Positions 6,772 to 57,013 of a stretch of 64,000 bases of DNA are shown piece after piece. Below the pieces are notes generated by a model, which was not told the DNA's origin, did no database searches, and saw only the letters and a list, made by a program, of their open reading frames with translations. Made by a program: the position numbers and the translations under genes. Location: the NCBI GenBank assembly GCA_963827315.1, contig CAWHAL010000004.1, positions 221,829 through 285,828 on the forward strand. The letters run 5' to 3'. This DNA is from an uncultured Planctomycetota bacterium (GTDB taxonomy: Bacteria; Planctomycetota; Phycisphaerae; Sedimentisphaerales; Anaerobacaceae). Positions within the stretch are counted from its first letter, which is position 1. Every line of letters starts with the position of its first letter.

Positions 6772-6775
6772 GAAC

Positions 6776-6847
6776 TCCCCGAGCTGGACTCGAACCAGCA
6801 ACCTAGCGGTTAACAGCCGCTCGCTCTACCGATTGAGCTATCGGGGA
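6776..6847 (-). tRNA. tRNA-Asn (anticodon GUU)
   Basis: Hand-folded 72-nt cloverleaf. Acceptor TCCCCGA/TCGGGGA, D arm GCTC..GAGC, anticodon arm AGCGG-CTGTTAA-CCGCT, T arm GCTGG-TTCGAGT-CCAGC. No encoded CCA. Confidence 0.9.
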
Positions 6848-31533: not shown

Positions 31534-31589
31534 TCTGTCATCTGCCGTCTGTCGTCTGTCTTCTGCCTTCTGTCATCTGTTCTTTCGTC
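31534..31589. repeat. heptad tract TCTGNNN x8
   Basis: TCTGTCA TCTGCCG TCTGTCG TCTGTCT TCTGCCT TCTGTCA TCTGTTC TTTCGTC. Confidence 0.85.
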
Positions 31590-33643: not shown

Positions 33644-33678
33644 TGGTAACTGGTTATTGGTTACTGGTAACGGGTTAC
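33644..33678. repeat. heptad tract TGGTWAY x5 with nested palindromes
   Basis: TGGTAAC TGGTTAT TGGTTAC TGGTAAC GGGTTAC. The outer inverted repeat is ATGGTAAC...GTTACCAT. Confidence 0.85.
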
Positions 33679-37159: not shown

Positions 37160-37614
37160 CTGACGCCGGGGTGCAAACGCGAGGTCCGCTTATACCATTT
37201 CCGCGAAACGCGGCGTATTTAGCCTTGGGTTTTACCCTGGGTTGCAAACGTGAGGATTGCTTTCCCCTTCAACGCCCGCCGTTTGGGCGTTTGTATTTAG
37301 CCCCGGCCTCCGGCCGGGGTTGCCTGCGCGAGGTCCGCTTATACCATTTCCGCGAAACGCGGCGTATTTAGCCTTGGGTTTTACCCTGGGTTGCAAACGT
37401 GAGGATTACTTTCCCCTTCAACGCCCGCCGTCCGGGCGTTTGTATTTAGCCCCGGCCTCCGGCCGGGGTTGCCCACGCCTGCCCTGCTTGCCCCGTGAGA
37501 CGTGTCGTGTACTGTCTCACTGGGGTGAGACTTGCCCTGTGAGATGCGCAGTGTGCTATCTCATCAGGGTGCGCCGTATGCTATCCCATCGGGGCGAGGA
37601 ACGCTTAAATTTAC

Positions 37615-37808: not shown

Positions 37809-39890
37809 ATGGGCGTATGTGATGCGCATGACGCAGCTTGGGGATGCAAGAAAACGCTCGCAGAAGGTGAAGGTTTTGCGATCGCTGCTAGGTTCATGCA
37901 GGACTCGCCGATTCAGGAGAAACTTGTCGATAAATCCTTGGATGTATACAAGAGACTTGGCATGCCGTTGTCTAGGCAAAACTGTAAGCTTCAAATCGAG
38001 AGTATACAGGGTGCCACACTATGGTTAATCTGTGAGCAGTGCGCAAACCTGTTGAAGCTAAGCAGTGCCGACAAAGAGGCGGCGAGGGAAGCTGCCCGAA
38101 GATGGTGGAAGGACAAGAGTGCACCTGGTCATATGCCTGGACAAAAGACGACAGAAAGGAACAAAAAGCCAGCATATTTCATTATTTATGGAAATGGATT
38201 CACTCCATCAGCGATACAGGCGCATCTTATCCTGCGGTATTGGGTTGAAAAGGTAAAAGGCAAACTTGGCGAAGATATATGGGAACATATCAGGATGGAG
38301 CTGACAAGTAAAGAACACGGATCTAGGATGGTATTCACAGAGGTTTTCACTGAGGAGAAAAAGGTTCATCGGGGTCAGTTGGTAGATGGCCTGTTTCTAC
38401 TAGACTACAAAACAGGACAAGATATGGCACTTATTGCAGTGTGGGCGCCGGAAGATTCAGAGTATGTCGGCTCTTTATTGAAACCAAACCAAGCCGTGAA
38501 GCCGATGGCAATCGCCGAGGCCGAGATCGAGCAGATTCAGAAACAGGTTTGTGAAAAACCAAAAAACATTTACGAGATTCTCATGGACGCGATCTGCTGT
38601 GTCATGTGTGCTGATGGAAATGCGACGCCAAAGGAGCAAGAAGCGATTCATATCATTTTGGGTAAAACCAAAGCTTCTTGGACAAAAGAAGACATAGATA
38701 AGCGAATTGACGGCTTCCTGGAGCGAATCAAGATGGATGGTATGGACAAGATTGTTCAAGCGACCTGTGAGAATCTGCCCGAATTTAAGAGTAAAAAAAG
38801 ACGGGAGGTCTTGACGTTTTGTCTCGAATTTATTGCGCGTGCCGATGGAATAGTTGATGAAAAGGAAAAACAACTTATTGAAAAATTCAAGTCCGCTCTT
38901 GGAGTAGAGTCTGGCGATTCTGCCCCAAAGAGTGGGAGTCAGTCAAGCAAAGAAGAAAGGAAAACGGAAGAAGAAGAGCAAACAACTGTAAATTCCAGCC
39001 CATCAGATGATATCAATGCGAATAAATCTTCTGAACCGATTTTGCCTGATGGTAGTGTAGACGACCGTATCGATGGTTTATGGGACAGTGCTAAAAAGCT
39101 GGGTTGGTCGGAAACAGACTGCGAGAAAGAGATATCGATATATACAGAAATTCTCGGATTGGTTAATAAAAGTTCGAAATATAACGCATGTGCATCATTG
39201 CGCAATAGAGCAATTTCTTATAGGAATTTAAAGAAGTTCGACGAGGCTTTAAATGATCTTCAACATGAGTTGGAAATTGCTCAAAAAATCGGGGACCGAT
39301 ATCGCGTTATGGAATGCCAGAGAGTCATGAAAGAGACCAAACAAATGAAACAGGATGCTGAAATAAAAGCAAGCGGTGGTGAGAAGTCTTTAAAGGTCCA
39401 GTCCATGGAGCAACAGGCAAGTAAACTCTCTGACTCTGGTGCCGAGGGGGATGCAGCCTTTAAGAGTCTTTTCGAGGATTTAGCAAATAGCGATAGCGAT
39501 ATTCGTGCAAAGGCCTCGCAGCTATTGGCACACTCTTCCGAGGCTAGCAGCAAATTAATTAATGTGTATCAGGAGTCCCTTGTCGCAGATCCGCGAAAGA
39601 GTGTCCTTGCAGGGCGAGTGCTTGGTCGAAAACTTGACGGTGGAAGGCAAGACATGATTCCTGAACAAGTGACTATGCTGCTGTTCAGAGTCAAAATTGC
39701 ATTTACCCCGTGCGTTTGTGGACGCTGTGGCGAGCTGAATGTTGGTATCCCTGTACCTGAAAAAGGTTTGTATATTGGATTCTATGGCCAAACCGATGAC
39801 AAACATGGAGCATACGCTCTGCCTGTACTTTGTGATTACTGCGGCAAGGAATTCTTCATAGCGTGGGATAGTGACCCGCGAGGGCAATAA
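37809..39890 (+). CDS. hypothetical multidomain protein: TerB-like domain, acidic/Ser linker, TPR-like helices, C-terminal CxxC...CxxC zinc ribbon
   Basis: 693-aa ORF with GGAG 7 nt upstream of the ATG. ILMDAICCVMCADGNATPKEQEAIHIIL ... FIARADGIVDEKEKQLIEKF looks like a TerB-type fold. NRAISYRNLKKFDEALNDLQHELEIAQKIGD is TPR-like. CVCGRCGE...CDYCGKEF is a zinc ribbon. Confidence 0.6.
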   Translation: MGVCDAHDAAWGCKKTLAEGEGFAIAARFMQDSPIQEKLVDKSLDVYKRLGMPLSRQNCKLQIESIQGATLWLICEQCANLLKLSSADKEAAREAARRWWKDKSAPGHMPGQKTTERNKKPAYFIIYGNGFTPSAIQAHLILRYWVEKVKGKLGEDIWEHIRMELTSKEHGSRMVFTEVFTEEKKVHRGQLVDGLFLLDYKTGQDMALIAVWAPEDSEYVGSLLKPNQAVKPMAIAEAEIEQIQKQVCEKPKNIYEILMDAICCVMCADGNATPKEQEAIHIILGKTKASWTKEDIDKRIDGFLERIKMDGMDKIVQATCENLPEFKSKKRREVLTFCLEFIARADGIVDEKEKQLIEKFKSALGVESGDSAPKSGSQSSKEERKTEEEEQTTVNSSPSDDINANKSSEPILPDGSVDDRIDGLWDSAKKLGWSETDCEKEISIYTEILGLVNKSSKYNACASLRNRAISYRNLKKFDEALNDLQHELEIAQKIGDRYRVMECQRVMKETKQMKQDAEIKASGGEKSLKVQSMEQQASKLSDSGAEGDAAFKSLFEDLANSDSDIRAKASQLLAHSSEASSKLINVYQESLVADPRKSVLAGRVLGRKLDGGRQDMIPEQVTMLLFRVKIAFTPCVCGRCGELNVGIPVPEKGLYIGFYGQTDDKHGAYALPVLCDYCGKEFFIAWDSDPRGQ

Positions 39891-40040
39891 TAGGGACAGC
39901 TATCGTTTTTTACAGCCCCCTCGTCCCTTTTCCTTGTCCACTCCGCTGACTTCTCCGCCCGCGACTTCAATTTTAGTTTTACGTCGCCGCGCACGGGCCA
40001 CGAGCAACGAAATTTTCCTTCGGCCAAACCAAAAAATACA

Positions 40041-40089
40041 GTGTTAATCTGTGTTAATCCGTGTCTAAAAATCTGTGTAATCAGTGATT
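40041..40089. repeat. short GTG-initiated ~10-bp repeats
   Basis: GTGTTAATCT GTGTTAATCC GTGTCTAAAAATCT GTGTAATCA GTGATTAAT. Confidence 0.6.
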
Positions 40090-40127
40090 AATTTTTCTTT
40101 GTGCCTTTTGTGTTTTAAAAAACCCTG

Positions 40128-40328
40128 CTATCTCTTCTCTTGATGGCCGAGTATTCTGGCCGGTAGAAACAGAATAGATTTAATCAGGGCCAAAAACGCA
40201 TCGGCGGCAATACCCACAATACGAAATGGAATCGACAAAAGCCATATAACCGGCCATAATACCAATGCCAACAATGCTATCGGCCAGCACAACGCCAGCA
40301 AAATCGCCCACAACAGTAAGACAAGCAA
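40128..40328 (-). CDS. possible small hydrophobic membrane protein
   Basis: 66-aa ORF with two strongly hydrophobic helices. The only start is a TTG, and the AGGAGA is 16 nt away, so the call is weak. Confidence 0.35.
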   Translation of the reverse strand: MLVLLLWAILLALCWPIALLALVLWPVIWLLSIPFRIVGIAADAFLALIKSILFLPARILGHQEKR

Positions 40329-40628
40329 TACCTTAATTGTATGTCTCCTAATAAATAAGCTGCGTCCATATTATAACGTGCCCCAACATTAAAAACCAGT
40401 AGATTTGATTCGATATCCTTAAAAAAACTTGTATTTTCAGTTAAATTGCGCAGCCATCGGCCAAACTATGCAGCGGAATCCACGTCTTAAAAATCCCCGC
40501 CAAAATCGCCATTCGTAGCGCAGCGCAAGCCTCAGGATGATTTTGCAAAAGTCGCCGTTCGTCTTCTGACTTGTGCTCTTATGCACTTACGACTTTTGCT
40601 CTTGCACACCTACGCTGTTGCTGCCGGC

Positions 40629-40663
40629 GAGATACGAGATACAAGCGACGAGCCACGATTCAC
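40629..40663. repeat. heptad tract, GAGATAC family
   Basis: GAGATAC GAGATAC AAGCGAC GAGCCAC GATTCAC. Confidence 0.8.
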
Positions 40664-40721
40664 AAATCCCCCATTCTCAAAACCTTCACTTAAAAATCCT
40701 TGCTTATTAAGTCACGACATT

Positions 40722-40756
40722 AGTATATATGCATATACTAATATACTTTCTGACGC
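40722..40756. repeat. 35-bp perfect direct repeat, copy 1
   Basis: AGTATATATGCATATACTAATATACTTTCTGACGC. Contains the 12-bp palindrome TATATGCATATA. Confidence 0.9.
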
Positions 40757-40894
40757 TAGGTGGTATTGACACCTACTGAAAAAACATCTAAAAAATTCCC
40801 ACCTCAAATCCCTCTTTCAAAAAAACCATGTTTCTTAAACTCCTCATTCCCAAAACCCTCGTTCTCAAAACTCTGATTCTTAAAGCAGTCCGTA

Positions 40895-40929
40895 AGTATA
40901 TATGCATATACTAATATACTTTCTGACGC
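40895..40929. repeat. 35-bp perfect direct repeat, copy 2
   Basis: Identical to 40722-40756 and 173 bp downstream of it. Confidence 0.9.
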
Positions 40930-40965
40930 CACCCCGGCAAAACCCGCACTTAAAATTTCTTCGGC

Positions 40966-40993
40966 GACATACGATATACGCACGACGCAACAC
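40966..40993. repeat. heptad tract, GAnAnAC family
   Basis: GACATAC GATATAC GCACGAC GCAACAC. Confidence 0.7.
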
Positions 40994-41007
40994 GAAGTTA
41001 TAGTTTA

Positions 41008-41042
41008 CCCCGTGAGATGTGTCGTTTACTATCTAACTGGGG
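41008..41042. repeat. dispersed copy of the CCCCGTGAGAY hairpin family
   Basis: CCCCGTGAGAT-GTGTCGTTTACT-ATCTAACTGGGG. Same architecture as 37077-37111, 37491-37525 and 37535-37569. Confidence 0.75.
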
Positions 41043-41085
41043 CTGCATCCAAAAAACATCGTAAAATCTCGTGCTTTGGTAATTC

Positions 41086-41168
41086 GAACTTGTCCGCCGC
41101 AGGCGGATTTGTTTAGGACTTGTCCGCCGTCCGTCTGGCGGATTTAGAATTTAGAGATTCGGATTTAG
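41086..41168. repeat. two ACTTGTCCGCC...GGCGGA hairpins followed by GATTTAG heptads
   Basis: TCCGCC-GCA-GGCGGA at 41093-41107 and TCCGCC-GTCCGTCT-GGCGGA at 41123-41142, then GATTTAG AATTTAG AGATTCG GATTTAG at 41141-41168. Confidence 0.8.
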
Positions 41169-41179
41169 AGAAAAGAATA

Positions 41180-41198
41180 CCTAAGTATCTTAGGTATC
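41180..41198. repeat. palindrome CCTAAG-TAT-CTTAGG + TATC, copy 1
   Basis: Seen directly. Candidate operator. Confidence 0.8.
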
Positions 41199-41265
41199 AC
41201 TCCTAACAGTTCAGCGACAAGGTGTATGAAAAAGTTAAGATGTATAAACAAGTTGGCTATCAATG

Positions 41266-41284
41266 CCTAAGTATCTTAGGTATC
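41266..41284. repeat. palindrome CCTAAG-TAT-CTTAGG + TATC, copy 2
   Basis: Identical 19-mer, 86 bp downstream of copy 1. Confidence 0.8.
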
Positions 41285-41362
41285 GCTCTCGGCTAATCAA
41301 TGCTTATGAACTGCGAACTACCAACCACAAACTTGCTCGTCGCGGCCCCCGCCAGCAACAAA

Positions 41363-41397
41363 GTCTGGCGTCTGTGGTCTGGTGTCTGGAGTCTTTT
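41363..41397. repeat. heptad tract GTCTGNN x5
   Basis: GTCTGGC GTCTGTG GTCTGGT GTCTGGA GTCTTTT. Confidence 0.8.
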
Positions 41398-41460
41398 GGC
41401 CGCGCATGTCGCTGCGCGACCAAATGCGCAAGGGGGTACTTCAATCACTGTCCAAAACGC

Positions 41461-41541
41461 ACCAATTTCTTGCAATTTTTGCTAATTTTTTGAAATTTTT
41501 ACGAATTTTTGCAAATTTCTTACAATTTTTTGCATTTTTTT
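41461..41541. repeat. eight helically phased T-tracts (9-11 bp period)
   Basis: ACCAATTTCT TGCAATTTTT GCTAATTTTTT GAAATTTTT ACGAATTTTT GCAAATTTCT TACAATTTTTT GCATTTTTTT. Confidence 0.85.
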
Positions 41542-41732
41542 CGCTCAACTTGCGCGTTTGATGCGAAATTTTACTTTGCCCCGCTTGCCCAATTGCTACA
41601 TCTTAACGCCCACCCCAATTTTATCCGCCTGTGACGGACCCCCGTTTTTAACCCAAAAACCAGCTTAGGCCCCTAAAAATCAGCCCCAAATTTTCCCAAA
41701 ATTCCGGATTGTCAAGGTTGGATTATGAATGC

Positions 41733-41760
41733 TTGCCTTTTAGTGAAAAATGTTTATAAT
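41733..41760 (+). promoter_or_regulatory. putative sigma70-like promoter of the SPOR-gene operon
   Basis: TTGCCT-N16-TATAAT, about 45 nt upstream of ATG 41804. Confidence 0.35.
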
Positions 41761-47749: not shown

Positions 47750-47755
47750 CTCGAT

Positions 47756-47811
47756 ATTGATTATTTACTATTTGCTATTGACTATTGTTTCGGTTGTCAA
47801 TATTCAATTCA
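47756..47811. repeat. heptad tract (8 units), AAT family on the minus strand
   Basis: Plus strand reads ATTGATT ATTTACT ATTTGCT ATTGACT ATTGTTT CGGTTGT CAATATT CAATTCA. Minus strand reads AATAGTC AATAGCA AATAGTA AATAATC AAT. Confidence 0.8.
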
Positions 47812-53160: not shown

Positions 53161-54111
53161 GTGGCAAGTCATTTTGCGGATAGGCTTTGTGAGGCGGTAA
53201 AGGCCAGGAAAACACCTTTGGTTGTCGGCCTGGATCCTCTTTACGGTCGGCTGCCGGCGGCGATAAAAGGCCATCGGGATATGAATGACGAGTTTGACGC
53301 AGCGGCAGCGGTAGATGCGATTTTCGACTTTTGCACTCAGACGATGAGAATCATCGCACCGATGGTTCCAGCCGTAAAAATAAATATCGCCTTTTTTGAA
53401 AAGTATCTCTGGGAAGGGGTGGAAACTTATTACGCGTTGGTTTCTGAGGCGGATGCTCTGGGCCTTGAGGTAATCGGGGATGTGAAGCGAGGCGACATAG
53501 GCCATACCGCCGAGCTTTATGCCTCCGCTCATCTGGAAAATCCGGAATTGGTTGGCTTGGAAGACACGCTCACCCCTGATGCTATTACCATCAACGGCTT
53601 TGCAGGAGTCGAATCGATAGAGCCGTTTGTACGAGTCGCTGACCAGCAGGGCAAAGGCGTCTTTGTTTGGGTCCGCTCGAGCAATCCCACAGCGGCGCCG
53701 ATTCAGGATTTTGCCGGCGCAGACGGCCAAATGATGTACGAGAAACTCGCTGAAATCGTCGCGCAAATTGCCAATAAACCGGAACATGTCGGCAAAAATG
53801 GCTACAGCAACGTCGGAATGGTGGTTGGTGGTACCGCGCCACACGTCACAACAGCACTACGTCAAAAGTACGATAAAGTATGGTTTCTCGTGCCGGGCTA
53901 CGGCTCACAGGGCGCTTCCGCTACAGACTGCGTCCGCTTCTGCAAACCGGACGGCACGGGAGCACTGATTAACGCCTCACGTTCAGTTATCTACGCCTAT
54001 GAAAAGCCAAGGTACAAGGAACAGTTCGGCGACGACTGGGGAAGATGTATCGAGCAGGCGGTCATCGATGCAAAAATTGACCTGGCGAACGCGATGCAGA
54101 CCTTGATTTGA
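53161..54111 (+). CDS. pyrF: orotidine 5'-phosphate decarboxylase, type 2
   Basis: PLVVGLDP, DVKRGDIGHTA, and a long-form length of 316 aa. GTG start. Confidence 0.85.
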   Translation: MASHFADRLCEAVKARKTPLVVGLDPLYGRLPAAIKGHRDMNDEFDAAAAVDAIFDFCTQTMRIIAPMVPAVKINIAFFEKYLWEGVETYYALVSEADALGLEVIGDVKRGDIGHTAELYASAHLENPELVGLEDTLTPDAITINGFAGVESIEPFVRVADQQGKGVFVWVRSSNPTAAPIQDFAGADGQMMYEKLAEIVAQIANKPEHVGKNGYSNVGMVVGGTAPHVTTALRQKYDKVWFLVPGYGSQGASATDCVRFCKPDGTGALINASRSVIYAYEKPRYKEQFGDDWGRCIEQAVIDAKIDLANAMQTLI

Positions 54112-54214
54112 TATAATGGTACAAATACTTAGGTTTTGGTCGCAAGACCTCGGTGAAGACCATTAACTTTTTTGTACCATACTGTGAGCAGTGATTTCGG
54201 CGGGAAACAGAGTG

Positions 54215-55645
54215 ATGGTTAGTCATGCGGAATACCAAACACAAAGAAGGTTAAAGCCAGACACAATCAGGGACAGGGGATACTTCGCCGGTAAAAAAGT
54301 TCTGGTTATGGGCCTGGGGCGGTTCGGCGGCGGCGTTGATGTCGCCAAGTTTGCCGCCGGCGCCGGCGCAAAGGTAATAGTAACAGATATTGCTGCCGCC
54401 GAGCGGTTAAGCGGTTCACTAAAGCAGTTGGAAGGATTAAATAACGTAGAATATCACCTCGGCTCACATATCGCCGGTGATTTTGAGCGGGCCGATATTA
54501 TCGTAGTCAATCCTGCTGTGCCTGCCGATAATGAATTTCTGGAGATTGCCCGCCGAAACAACAAACTTATCACTTCGCAGGTGAATATTTTTTTTGAACT
54601 GTGCGCCGCAACGATAATCGGCATAACAGGAGCCAACGGCAAAAGCACGACAGCAGCACTCACAGCGCATTTGCTCAGAAGTACGAGAAGCGAGATACGA
54701 GATACGAGAAACGAAAACGTCTGGCTGAGCGGCAACATCGGCGACCAGCCGTTGCTGATGGTAGCGGACCAGATTGGCCCTGATGACCTCGTTGTATTAG
54801 AACTGTCGAGTTTTCAGCTTGAGCAGTTGGCTCAAATTCAAAAGGTGCCGCAGGTTGCCTTGCTGACAAACCTTACGCCGAACCACCTTGACCGTTACGG
54901 AACGTTCGCCAGTTACTGCCGGGCCAAAGAAAATATATTCAAATACCAGAAGCCGAACGGGAAATCGCTGCCGGTTTCGTTTTTTAACGTCGAAGATAAG
55001 ATAGGGGCCGAATGGTTTGAAAAATACAGCAAAGATAAGAGGAGAACTTGTCTGAAGTTTTCTGCTGATGATGTAAGTGGAGAAATTCGTTCTTGTTTCA
55101 CACTGCTTGGCCGGGCCAATCTTTCAAACCTTGCCGCTGCAGTTGCCGTCGCGAAGTACTTCGGCGCGGATGAGGAGGCGATAAAGAATTGTCTGCTTGG
55201 ATTCAAGCCGCTGCCGCACAGACTCGAGTTGATATCGCAGATAAACGGCGTATCCTGGTATGACGATTCCAAAGCCACCACACCCGACAGCGCAATCGCT
55301 GCGCTGGAGGCATTCGAACAGCCGATAATAATAATAGCCGGCGGATACGATAAGAATATATCATTCGACAAGTTTGGCGAAGAAGTTGCCCATAAGGCAA
55401 AGGCGGCGGTTCTGATTGGGCAAACCAGAGAAAAAATCGCGGCGGCGATACGGTCGAGCCGGGCAGATGTTCTAACGGTTGAGTTTGCCCAATCACTGGC
55501 CGAGGCTGTGGGGCTGGCCGAGCGGCTGAGCACACCCGGTGACGTCGTTTTGCTCAGCCCAGCTTGCGCCAGCTTCGATATGTTTGAAAACTTTCAGCAG
55601 CGGGGCCGGGTATTTCGCGAGTTGGTCCGAAAAATCAGCGGTTAA
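54215..55645 (+). CDS. murD: UDP-N-acetylmuramoylalanine--D-glutamate ligase
   Basis: VLVMGLGRFGGG, P-loop GITGANGKSTT, GNIG, LPHRLE, and the Mur ligase C-domain. Start set at ATG 54215 (the ORF track GTG is 54191). Confidence 0.9.
   Translation: MVSHAEYQTQRRLKPDTIRDRGYFAGKKVLVMGLGRFGGGVDVAKFAAGAGAKVIVTDIAAAERLSGSLKQLEGLNNVEYHLGSHIAGDFERADIIVVNPAVPADNEFLEIARRNNKLITSQVNIFFELCAATIIGITGANGKSTTAALTAHLLRSTRSEIRDTRNENVWLSGNIGDQPLLMVADQIGPDDLVVLELSSFQLEQLAQIQKVPQVALLTNLTPNHLDRYGTFASYCRAKENIFKYQKPNGKSLPVSFFNVEDKIGAEWFEKYSKDKRRTCLKFSADDVSGEIRSCFTLLGRANLSNLAAAVAVAKYFGADEEAIKNCLLGFKPLPHRLELISQINGVSWYDDSKATTPDSAIAALEAFEQPIIIIAGGYDKNISFDKFGEEVAHKAKAAVLIGQTREKIAAAIRSSRADVLTVEFAQSLAEAVGLAERLSTPGDVVLLSPACASFDMFENFQQRGRVFRELVRKISG
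54685..54719. repeat. heptad tract (GAGATAC family) inside murD
   Basis: GAGAAGC GAGATAC GAGATAC GAGAAAC GAAAACG, which encodes most of the RSEIRDTRNEN segment. Confidence 0.8.
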
Positions 55646-55800
55646 TTATGGTGATATAGCCATACAAAACTCCAGAGGTTGTAAAAAAACCTGACTGGTA
55701 AGCGATTCAGGCGGCGGTTTTTCTGCAATGTTTCGTAAAGGAACTCGTCCGATTTGCCGATTTTGTAGTGTAAAGGCAAACGAAATTTGGGGCAAAAGTG

Positions 55801-56190
55801 ATGGACAGCAGGCACGAGCAAAGAGGAGAGCGAAGGCTACGTTATCACTGGCCAATCTGGTTCGCCGAGGACTTCGACGAAACACTCTCACAGGGACAAA
55901 TGGTCGATGTTTCCAGCGTTGGTGCGTCATTTACGTGCTGCGCTGGTGTAAATTGTCCGTCTCCGGGCCGACGGGTGACCAGCCGCTTTAGTGTCCCTCG
56001 CTTTTGCTCAGACGAATCATTCGATTTGGCGAGTTTCACGCGGACAGGCTCTGTTTGCCGCGTCGATGAGGTCAGCGAATTTCTCCGTCGTGTCGCGGTT
56101 CAGTTTGCAGAACCCCTGCCCTTTAGACCCGGTGAACAGGTCGCCAACGAATCTGAAATGCAGCAAAGGCTAAAGGCTGTGACAATATAG
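55801..56190 (+). CDS. PilZ domain protein
   Basis: RGERR (RxxxR) and DVSSVG (DxSxxG). Confidence 0.7.
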   Translation: MDSRHEQRGERRLRYHWPIWFAEDFDETLSQGQMVDVSSVGASFTCCAGVNCPSPGRRVTSRFSVPRFCSDESFDLASFTRTGSVCRVDEVSEFLRRVAVQFAEPLPFRPGEQVANESEMQQRLKAVTI

Positions 56191-56341: not shown

Positions 56342-57013
56342 ATGACTTCGCCGGAAATCGAGAACTTAATAGCGGAGGCGATTGATAACAGGCCGATGGT
56401 GACAGACGCCCCTATGAATCTCTATATTCACAACGGCAGATTGATTTGCGGAGCGCGGATAGTCATGCCTGAAGATGCTGTTTTTATTGCACACGTTCCG
56501 GCGGACCGGCTTGAAAACGGATTCAGCGAGAGAGAGTGGAAACTGATTGTGGAAAAAATAGAGAATGTTTTGGCAAAAGCGGAATCTGCAGCTGTCGCTG
56601 GGCTGCCGACAGATGCGGCGATATCTGAGCCTCAGACAGGGGTGGAGACCGGGCAGGAAAAACCCGAAGAGCGAAGAAGCGAGCAAAGGCTGTGTTATTA
56701 CCGTCCAATATGGTTTTCAGAAGACTTCGATAAGGGACCGCTGCAGGGCCAGATGGTCGACATCAGTAGCCGTGGTATGGCGTTTACCTGCGACAGTGGT
56801 GAGCCTTATATTTGCCCAGGCCGGCGGGTAACTACCCGGTTCAGTGTCCCCCGCTTTGATTTGGGCAGGTCCCCTGAGATAATGGGTTTCGAGCGCACCG
56901 GCTGCGTTTGCCGGGTCGATGATTCAAACGGAGTTTCACGCCGTGTTGCGCTCCAGTTTGCAGAACCTCTGCCTTTCAAACCAGGTGAGCAATCGCACAG
57001 CGTCCCGGACTGA
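56342..57013 (+). CDS. PilZ domain protein with N-terminal extension (paralog of the upstream gene)
   Basis: RSEQR and DISSRG. The C-terminal ~110 aa are colinear with the preceding gene (VALQFAEPLPFKPGEQ versus VAVQFAEPLPFRPGEQ). Confidence 0.7.
   Translation: MTSPEIENLIAEAIDNRPMVTDAPMNLYIHNGRLICGARIVMPEDAVFIAHVPADRLENGFSEREWKLIVEKIENVLAKAESAAVAGLPTDAAISEPQTGVETGQEKPEERRSEQRLCYYRPIWFSEDFDKGPLQGQMVDISSRGMAFTCDSGEPYICPGRRVTTRFSVPRFDLGRSPEIMGFERTGCVCRVDDSNGVSRRVALQFAEPLPFKPGEQSHSVPD

Follow-up and report, generated by a model that had tools for sequence, protein, structure and literature searches.

Here we describe a tandem array of heptanucleotides that lies, in frame, inside the gene murD on a 64,000-nt stretch of DNA from an uncultured member of the Planctomycetota (Phycisphaerae, Sedimentisphaerales; contig CAWHAL010000004.1). 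This whole stretch is hereafter referred to as the window, and positions are numbered along it. The array is probably a heptanucleotide microsatellite: its units would be gained and lost by replication slippage, the outcome being filtered by the reading frame, within a loop of the MurD enzyme that is permissive to such changes. We document the anatomy of the array, an insertion or deletion (indel) of whole units between close relatives, an excess rate of divergence, the seeding of units from local codons and the permissiveness of the loop. The features of the window are collected in Table 1.

The murD open reading frame (ORF) encodes 484 residues (including ...GANGKSTTAALTAHLLRSTRSEIRDTRNENVWLSGNIG...). 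Its start is probably at 54212 or 54215, because the database gene call is 477 residues long. The product contains the Pfam domains MurD-like_N (PF21799), Mur_ligase_M (PF08245) and Mur_ligase_C (PF02875) and the conserved MurD motifs GANGKST (the P-loop, GxxGK[ST]), GNIG, NHLDRY, DDSKATT and SPACASFD. In HMMER it aligned over its full length with 11 MurD sequences of solved structure (E = 9e-50 for 3lk7, residues 32-479). When its AlphaFold2 model (mean predicted local distance difference test score (pLDDT) 76.8) was compared with the PDB using Foldseek, the top 33 matches were all MurD, with TM scores up to 0.70. By its three-domain architecture the product is a genuine, intact MurD, with predicted ligase activity.

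The array is composed of five head-to-tail units with the consensus ACGAGNN, in a register (54683-54717) chosen as the best fit to relatives. Tandem Repeats Finder (TRF) reports it at 54682-54714 (period 7, 4.7 copies, 80% matches, score 45), and just two consecutive units are perfect (GAGATACGAGATAC). An earlier note on this DNA had read the tract as GAGAAGC GAGATAC GAGATAC GAGAAAC GAAAACG at 54685-54719; this is the same array with its register offset by 2 nt, and the letters match exactly. The note had placed the tract in frame within a genuine murD, and the translation of 54191-55645 does contain it (...TAHLLRSTRSEIRDTRNENVWLSGNIG). It had also assigned the tract to one unit family with a second tract at 40629-40663, and here too the letters are as it gave them; the two tracts have an exact 16-mer in common (GCGAGATACGAGATAC). 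With up to two mismatches allowed, the 14-mer GAGATACGAGATAC is found five times in the window against 0.18 expected, a number that none of 100 shuffles reached. The window copy is an array of five units in partial decay, its loop having the 14-residue length that is commonest in the clade. Two other readings of the tract were considered and discarded. Folded as a single strand, it is no more stable than shuffled sequence (z = -0.2), for which reason a hairpin or riboswitch-like reading was rejected; an Rfam scan of the whole window returned a tRNA (6775-6847) as its sole match, and none at the tract. A diversity-generating retroelement was dropped because the variable stretch spans 42 nt, is periodic and changes its length in unit steps, unlike adenine-directed substitution.

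Most of the 14 residues of a variable loop between the P-loop helix and the strand of VWLSGNIG are encoded by the array. The earlier note had proposed structure modelling as a way to place the tract; in the AlphaFold2 model it lies between a confident helix (the P-loop helix, residues 153-163) and a confident strand (VWLS, residues 177-180), with residues 167-175 scoring below 50 in pLDDT. It follows that what the repeat encodes is probably a flexible loop, situated at the helix end facing away from the P-loop; by this model the loop is probably also disordered. In HMMER alignments to 3lk7 and 7sy9 (MurD of Streptococcus agalactiae and Pseudomonas), an 8-residue gap falls exactly at the loop. 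The extra residues thus coincide with the repeat, as had been claimed, and the loop is indeed longer than in solved MurD structures, although by a number closer to 8 than to the roughly 10 residues first estimated against Escherichia coli. The proposal that the repeat is tolerated as a surface loop is supported, the loop being predicted to be of low confidence and flexible.

The loop could be read, between ...AHLL and VWLSGNIG, in 111 of the 120 best MurD matches, the nearest of which are labelled Sedimentisphaerales, Phycisphaerae or Planctomycetota by their source. The 14-residue state of the window is found in 62 of the 111 sequences, 7 residues in 19 and 13 residues in 9; loops of 11 or 15-24 residues (including 16 and 23) are found in 13, of 36-37 residues in 7 and of 44 residues in one. 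The feature therefore extends beyond the window genome. The loop peptides of the orthologs are seven-residue cycles, each of which back-translates to three heptads: TRYEIRD to (ACGAGAT)x3, SDERRAT to (AGCGACG)x3, TRDERRE to (ACGAGAG)x3, KSEVRSQ to (AAGTCAG)x3 and TQYAIRN to (ACGCAAT)x3. Perfect arrays occupy the orthologous site in the related loci L004 ((CGAGATA)x4) and L088 ((ACGAGAG)x5), and other heptad units are present at this site in L022, L012 and L025. In L034 (at about 2300-2500) the loop opens with (AAATCTC)x3-4, followed by a run of N, either a masked stretch or an assembly gap.

Copy number at the orthologous site varies in whole-unit steps, as seen in the dominance of the 7- and 14-residue classes and, most directly, in L164 and L165. 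These two genes are 92.2% identical in DNA over their whole length and differ by a single indel, of 21 nt, which is exactly 3 x CGAGCGA (AGAAGTG CGAGCGA CGAACAT in one, AGAAGTG (CGAGCGA)x4 CGAACAA in the other). Two pairs of neighbours in a neighbour-joining tree, P0062 and P0021, and P0019 and P0036, likewise differ by a three-unit step. L113 and L086 have nine units each, with (CAGAAGT)x3...(CGAGCAT)x2 in one and (CAGAAGT)x2...(CGAGCAT)x3 in the other, so that the border of the two adjoining arrays is displaced by one unit; from the two sequences this suggests a compensated change of -1 and +1 unit (about six events versus nine substitutions). L001 carries a hybrid array, (CGAGCGA)x2 (CGAGCAT)x2, an illustration of how one type of unit can arise from another. 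Among about 200 orthologs examined, no frameshifted or truncated allele was found, and all are in frame across the loop.

The loop also diverges faster than the rest of the gene. Between the window and L161, the nearest gene to hand (95% protein identity), loop length and 7-nt register are equal, and 13 of the 42 loop bases differ; outside the loop, 39 of 1,389 bases differ, and at four-fold degenerate sites 10 of 208. In this comparison between genomes, divergence in the loop (31%) is about six times that at four-fold sites (4.8%; binomial p = 5e-8), and no other 42-nt segment of murD is as divergent. The pace of change in the loop thus exceeds that of a neutral proxy, an excess to be expected of array turnover and not of a conserved functional motif.

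The arrays found at the orthologous site have quite different units, and several of these can be traced to local codons. The (CAGAAGT)n of L086 and L113 is an amplified C-AGA-AGT, present as a single copy in the window at 54676-54682, and the (AAATCTC)n of L034 starts from the AAA-TCT of Lys-Ser. That these units derive from the Arg-Ser and Lys-Ser codons of the site favours a local origin by duplication over import. In other phyla the loop has 6 residues. Phycisphaerae that branch more deeply have 13 residues here (xAGxGQxGFKYxN), specified by DNA without repeats, and the crown clade that includes the window has heptad arrays, the 3' end of which is anchored on the conserved xYxN (TRYEN = ACGAGAT ACGAAAA C). 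As the deeper Phycisphaerae already have a non-repetitive loop of 13 residues, the repeat is younger than most of the length by which the loop exceeds that of E. coli; what it explains is the steps of plus or minus 7 residues inside the clade. The earlier note had suggested that heptads can insert or expand in coding DNA, and had accepted that distant orthologs with a loop of equivalent length made of non-repetitive DNA would count against it. Expansion and contraction stand, given the 21-nt indel of L164 and L165, but insertion is not shown, the arrays of relatives at this site being locally seeded; a loop of the kind it had in mind does exist, in part, as that of the deeper Phycisphaerae.

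A mechanism consistent with these data would run as follows. Strand misalignment during replication would change the array by 7-nt units, and selection on the reading frame would pass net changes of three units (21 nt, 7 residues) or compensated single steps. A run of three units presents the heptad in each of the three phases, so that a unit would survive on the coding strand only if it is free of stops and hydrophilic in every one of them; ACGAGNN would read T-R/S-x-E-x-R-x. Recurrent gain, loss and point mutation would homogenize or replace units, a form of concerted evolution, and the peptide would have no specific function beyond that of a tolerated, flexible and charged surface loop. The site has what characterizes a heptanucleotide microsatellite: an excess of head-to-tail copies, variation in unit steps and a divergence elevated over that of the flanking sequence.

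Period-7 arrays are the dominant class of tandem repeat in the window and in related DNA of Phycisphaerae and Sedimentisphaerales. TRF found five such arrays of at least three copies in the window, where 40 Markov-2 shuffles give an expectation of 0.12, an excess of about 40-fold, with no other period comparably enriched. Their units are TCTGTCA, TGGTTAC, AGTCTGG, TATTGAC and ACGAGAT, and four of the five arrays are intergenic. The 84 related loci (802 kb) contain 102 arrays of period 7, with 82 distinct TRF consensus units, versus at most 13 arrays for any other period; 56 of the 102 fall outside long open frames. Period 7 also ranks first, at 80 arrays, among the 79 outgroup loci (997 kb; mainly Acidobacteriota and others). 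Relatives have intergenic clusters in which as many as seven heptad arrays, no two with the same unit, lie side by side (L018 4165-4428, and also L018 2859-2969, L001 181-521 and L014 611-693); their anatomy is like that of the window at 40568-40663. A protein search with (TRYEIRD)x6 matched only ORFs of 29-74 residues without domains, short MurD arrays falling below the E-value ceiling. Long (ACGAGAT)n arrays, read as TRYEIRD, were seen in this way in Vibrio spp., Methylohalomonas lacus and a metagenome-assembled genome (MAG) of the Clostridia (proteins P0121-P0174). Since they are called as 29-74-residue hypothetical proteins without domains, they are probably intergenic arrays, and the ACGAGAT unit therefore recurs in unrelated phyla.

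Inside murD itself, the variable loop is not the only site. Many relatives have heptad arrays in a second MurD loop, in the C-terminal domain after ...GQTxxKIAxAI, and in some the 5' end of the gene bears arrays as well; the second loop of the window (AIRSSRADVLTVEF) is without a heptad array. The product of the window begins with an N-terminal extension, MISAGNRVMVSHAEYQTQRRLKPDTIRDRGY (residues 1-31, 54191-54285; pLDDT below 50 at residues 1-24), which is conserved in the closest relatives. The same region holds heptad arrays in L016 (9986-10020) and L018 (10015-10053), and in L013 also a palindromic element described below, and the extension of the window MurD may be what is left of an array that decayed. 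Long open frames hold 46 of the 102 period-7 arrays of the related loci. Every one of the 46 belongs to murD; the flanking genes, about 680 kb of sequence, have none. This is no proof that murD is special, because the loci were all chosen for murD and the arrays may be inherited. Two unrelated bacteria with MurD proteins 31-37% identical to that of the window have unrelated in-frame arrays in the same second loop, (AAAAGTC)x7.6 at L131 2121-2172 and (ACTACAT)x4.4 at L150 3041-3071, and a MurE of the Blastocatellia contains (CGGGGAC)x4.6 (L045 8267-8298). These arrays favour plain permissiveness, and the loops of Mur ligases seem to be recurrently permissive.

Several points weigh against the slippage interpretation. 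Arrays confined, among the coding sequences of the related loci, to murD are not obviously predicted by generic slippage, and this is the main fact that the simple account does not predict. Arrays persist down to about 62% protein identity at two internal loops (and at the 5' end in some relatives), and a neutral microsatellite would be expected to decay over that divergence. As merely two of its units are perfect, the present instability of the window array may be low. The polarity of the loop history is provisional, since the tree is a neighbour-joining tree and not a rigorous phylogeny. Finally, that the molecular event is slippage, and that the peptide is neutral, are both inferences.

The concentration of arrays in murD raises the question of whether the gene attracts them, and a palindromic element found in relatives bears on this. 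A near-palindrome of about 30 nt (GTCATTGCGAGCGAAGCGAAGCAATCTCAA; 24-nt core CATTGCGAGCGAAGCGAAGCAATC) lies in frame in the MurD genes of relatives, with 11 cases of the core, always in one orientation. Its reading in loop 1 (L006, L013, L016, L095 and L105) is VIASEAKQSQ, with a different heptad array on each side of it, whereas in loop 2 (L008, L010, L017, L035, L095 and L099) it is read as SLRAKRSNL. A longer form, at L037 2756, carries terminal inverted repeats of 11 bp and has a strong fold (z = -4.9); the fold of the 30-nt form is not significant (z = 0.3). In the window, murD included, the core has no match at up to three mismatches, and a literature search with the palindrome sequence strings returned unrelated primer matches only. 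A sequence resembling the core, CATTCGTAGCGCAGCGCAAGC, is present at 40510-40530, upstream of the array at 40627 by about 100 nt; it is a weak lead, and its match statistic is circular, because the search pattern was derived after seeing that sequence. One reading of these data is that murD of this Phycisphaerae lineage is a specifically targeted or actively maintained hotspot, the two loops and, in some relatives, the 5' end repeatedly gaining heptads together with the palindrome. We regard this as doubtful. If it were true, the element would represent a very small mobile DNA in Planctomycetota, akin to the small dispersed repeats (SDRs) of Nostoc, that homes to heptad arrays inside coding sequence; alternatively, hypervariable heptad tracts would help to control a gene of peptidoglycan synthesis.

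It is, in our judgement, improbable that the array was delivered by, or is part of, a small mobile element, with heptads travelling alongside the imperfect palindrome into permissive sites. The position and single orientation of the core in both MurD loops, and the strongly folding long form with its terminal repeats, are what such an element would show. One heptad unit is found at both 40627 and the window murD, with the element-like 40510-40530 segment near the former (its circular statistic carries no weight), and unit families are common to both MurD sites and to intergenic arrays. However, the window murD lacks a copy of the core, as do most array-bearing relatives, and the short form has no significant fold. 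Arrays are traceable to the amplification of local codons, and the cleanest length difference, between L164 and L165, is an exact three-unit step in a perfect array without element ends. Nor does the window tract have a palindromic core with defined ends, as expected of an SDR or a repetitive extragenic palindromic (REP)-like sequence.

We also think it unlikely that the repeat is kept for a function, whether the loop acts in MurD interaction or regulation or the mRNA or DNA serves as a binding platform for a regulator. Such a role would fit the persistence of arrays at fixed sites across deep divergence, the 46 of 46 coding arrays of the sampled loci that fall in murD, the array-bearing site at the 5' end of the gene in some relatives and the always hydrophilic, charged composition of the loop, and regulatory roles of heptamers have been the subject of published speculation (PMC4679880; bioRxiv 10.1101/2022.06.06.494920). 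Yet the loop is hypervariable, with 4 of 14 residues in common with a 95%-identical ortholog, and is disordered by prediction; the tract does not fold significantly, and close relatives (85-92% identical) are entirely without the extra 7 residues. Units differ completely between lineages (ACGAGAT, CAGAAGT, ACCAATT and AAATCTC), which argues against a sequence-specific binder.

A contingency switch, in which slippage by a single unit would shift murD out of and back into frame and so provide bet-hedging by growth arrest, is very improbable. The unit is not a multiple of three, which makes the frameshift-proneness ascribed to the tract by the earlier note plausible in principle, and single-unit shifts seem to occur in relatives, as in the compensated pair L113 and L086. 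The tract, however, is not a long perfect one, with merely two perfect units, and no on/off alleles were seen, the roughly 200 orthologs all being in frame and none truncated. In known bacteria, murD is essential and single-copy; an off state would thus be lethal and not adaptive. That the periodicity is a chance or compositional artefact of a loop rich in Arg, Glu and Thr might be entertained for an array so short (35 nt) and imperfect, but it is effectively refuted by the 40-fold excess over shuffles, the perfect arrays at the same site in orthologs and the L164/L165 indel, and selection at the protein level for a 7-residue repeat would not yield a 7-nt periodicity.

Microsatellite formation by slippage, the reading that we prefer, places the array among known heptamer systems. 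In the statement of Mrazek, Guo and Shah (2007) that is quoted in PMC4692102, heptameric simple sequence repeats (SSRs) are over-represented in many bacteria and polymerase slippage is proposed as their origin; examples of such repeats are GGGAATC in Xanthomonas and GGGGA(C/T)T in Nostoc. The arrays described here are like these SSRs in their tandem 7-nt units, in the variation of copy number and sequence between close relatives, in their mostly intergenic location and in the way that the heptamer class stands out over other unit lengths. They are unlike them in that the window array is inside the gene of an essential enzyme, in frame, with two to five units, and that its units are A/G-rich and do not form G-quadruplexes; the host, moreover, is a member of the Planctomycetota (Phycisphaerae). 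A literature search found no paper on heptad repeats in Planctomycetes.

MacGregor (2015, PMC4679880) described direct repeats of TAACTGA in Beggiatoaceae, Cyanobacteria and Bacteroidetes; copies of these inside ORFs are rare and are tolerated at peripheral positions, usually termini, such as the C terminus of MurG (PMC4679880). For heptamer repeats situated close to start codons, in Beggiatoaceae and in Nostoc, there has been speculation about a regulatory role (PMC4679880; bioRxiv 10.1101/2022.06.06.494920). As with TAACTGA and with the short tandemly repeated repetitive (STRR) sequences of heterocystous cyanobacteria (Nostoc and Calothrix), many heptamer arrays are dispersed here, often just upstream of start codons, and the array at 47755-47787, 6 nt before rbfA, has the arrangement for which a translational role was speculated in Beggiatoaceae. 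This array (GTCAATA on the gene strand) fills the 59-nt infB-rbfA spacer and stops 6 nt upstream of the rbfA start codon (- strand), at the expected ribosome-binding site. By contrast with STRR and TAACTGA, which have one or a few defined units (for example, CCCCAGT and TAACTGA), the units of the window and its relatives are diverse and locally seeded, and the MurD copies occupy loops internal to the fold, have been inherited throughout a clade and change in 21-nt steps. Thus, the mainly intergenic and often near-start location of those families is found here and a defined genome-wide unit is not, and because there is no defined family unit we do not count the tract as a member of either.

SDRs of Nostoc are described, at second hand, in PMC5861425 and PMC3116915. 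The ~30-nt near-palindrome of the relatives is like an SDR in lying between heptad arrays and in being tolerated in coding sequence, in two reading frames. It differs in sequence and phylum, is known from presence or absence at orthologous sites, and is absent from the window murD. Elhai and colleagues are said to have found, in 2008, that the Nostoc SDRs sit within heptamer repeats. With the contingency loci of Haemophilus, Neisseria and others the array has in common an SSR inside coding sequence with a unit that is not a multiple of three; those loci, however, are long perfect tracts that switch dispensable surface or restriction-modification genes on and off, whereas the murD tract is short and imperfect, lies in an essential gene and has in-frame variants only. 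New here are the internal loops of an essential enzyme, the clade-wide turnover in 21-nt steps and the planctomycete host; the proposed slippage mechanism is ordinary.

The array would represent a clean natural case of a non-triplet microsatellite inside an essential gene, with the reading frame as a sieve. MurD is an antibiotic target, and two of its loops naturally permit insertions of 7 to about 50 residues, which is useful for protein engineering and for the interpretation of alignments. The heptanucleotide-repeat phenomenon of cyanobacteria, Xanthomonas and Beggiatoaceae is extended to Planctomycetota, in which slippage can be traced across many genomes. For annotation, charged insertions with a 7-residue periodicity in these genomes, such as TRYEIRD and SDERRAT, are to be taken as products of DNA slippage and not as functional motifs.

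Table 1 Features of the window: murD, its variable loop and the heptad arrays
Feature	Positions	Strand	Basis
murD (UDP-N-acetylmuramoyl-L-alanine:D-glutamate ligase), intact	54191-55645	+	ORF, Pfam, HMMER, Foldseek
Variable MurD loop, 14 codons RSTRSEIRDTRNEN, residues 163-176	54677-54718	+	Loop alignment, AlphaFold2, HMMER gap
murD heptad array, 5 head-to-tail units ACGAGAA GCGAGAT ACGAGAT ACGAGAA ACGAAAA	54683-54717	+	Direct reading, TRF
Intergenic array of the murD unit family, GCGAGAT ACGAGAT ACAAGCG ACGAGCC ACGATTC AC	40627-40663	+	Direct reading; TRF 40628-40642
Heptad array TCTGTCA x 6.7, intergenic, upstream of dnaG; not part of the murD feature	31534-31580		TRF, ORF context
Heptad array TGGTTAC x 5, dnaG-rpoD spacer or extreme 5' end of the rpoD ORF	33644-33678		TRF, ORF context
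Heptad array AGTCTGG x 4.7, in the non-coding stretch shared with the 40627 array	41362-41394		TRF, ORF context
Heptad array TATTGAC x 4.7 (+ strand), infB-rbfA spacer	47755-47787		TRF, ORF context

Several other repeats of the window were noted. The array at 33644-33678 starts a long ORF of rpoD (sigma-70), the true start of which is probably downstream, so the array is likely to be in the spacer or the 5' untranslated region. The 40627 and 41362 arrays belong to a repeat-rich, non-coding stretch of about 1.9 kb (about 39890-41750), with no ORF of at least 110 residues and no Rfam family. Its tandem repeats have units of 23 nt (40568-40622), 7 nt (40628-40642 and 41362-41394), 15 nt (40837-40884), 18 nt (41219-41254) and 10/20/30 nt (41463-41541, CAATTTTTTG). 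Upstream, a 149-nt unit occurs twice, with 97% identity, at 37178-37473 and is followed by 44-nt and 25-nt tandem repeats (37487-37594), the whole group (37178-37594) lying just upstream of, or overlapping, the start of a gene for a 693-residue TerB/TPR protein (37809-39890). A 123-nt tandem repeat of 3.4 copies (86% matches) is found at 1598-2015.

The murD of the window does not belong to a division and cell-wall (dcw) cluster and lies after pyrF (OMP decarboxylase) and before PilZ genes (53161-55645 for the pyrF-murD pair), and the order pyrF-murD is also present in the relatives L162, L163, L164 and L165. Downstream of murD are two neighbouring ORFs with PilZ domains (55798-56190 and 56342-57013). 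They share a near-identical C-terminal block, RL.Y..PIWF.EDFD...QGQMVD.SS.G..FTC...RVT.RFSVPRF...FAEPLPF.PGEQ, and resemble tandem paralogues.

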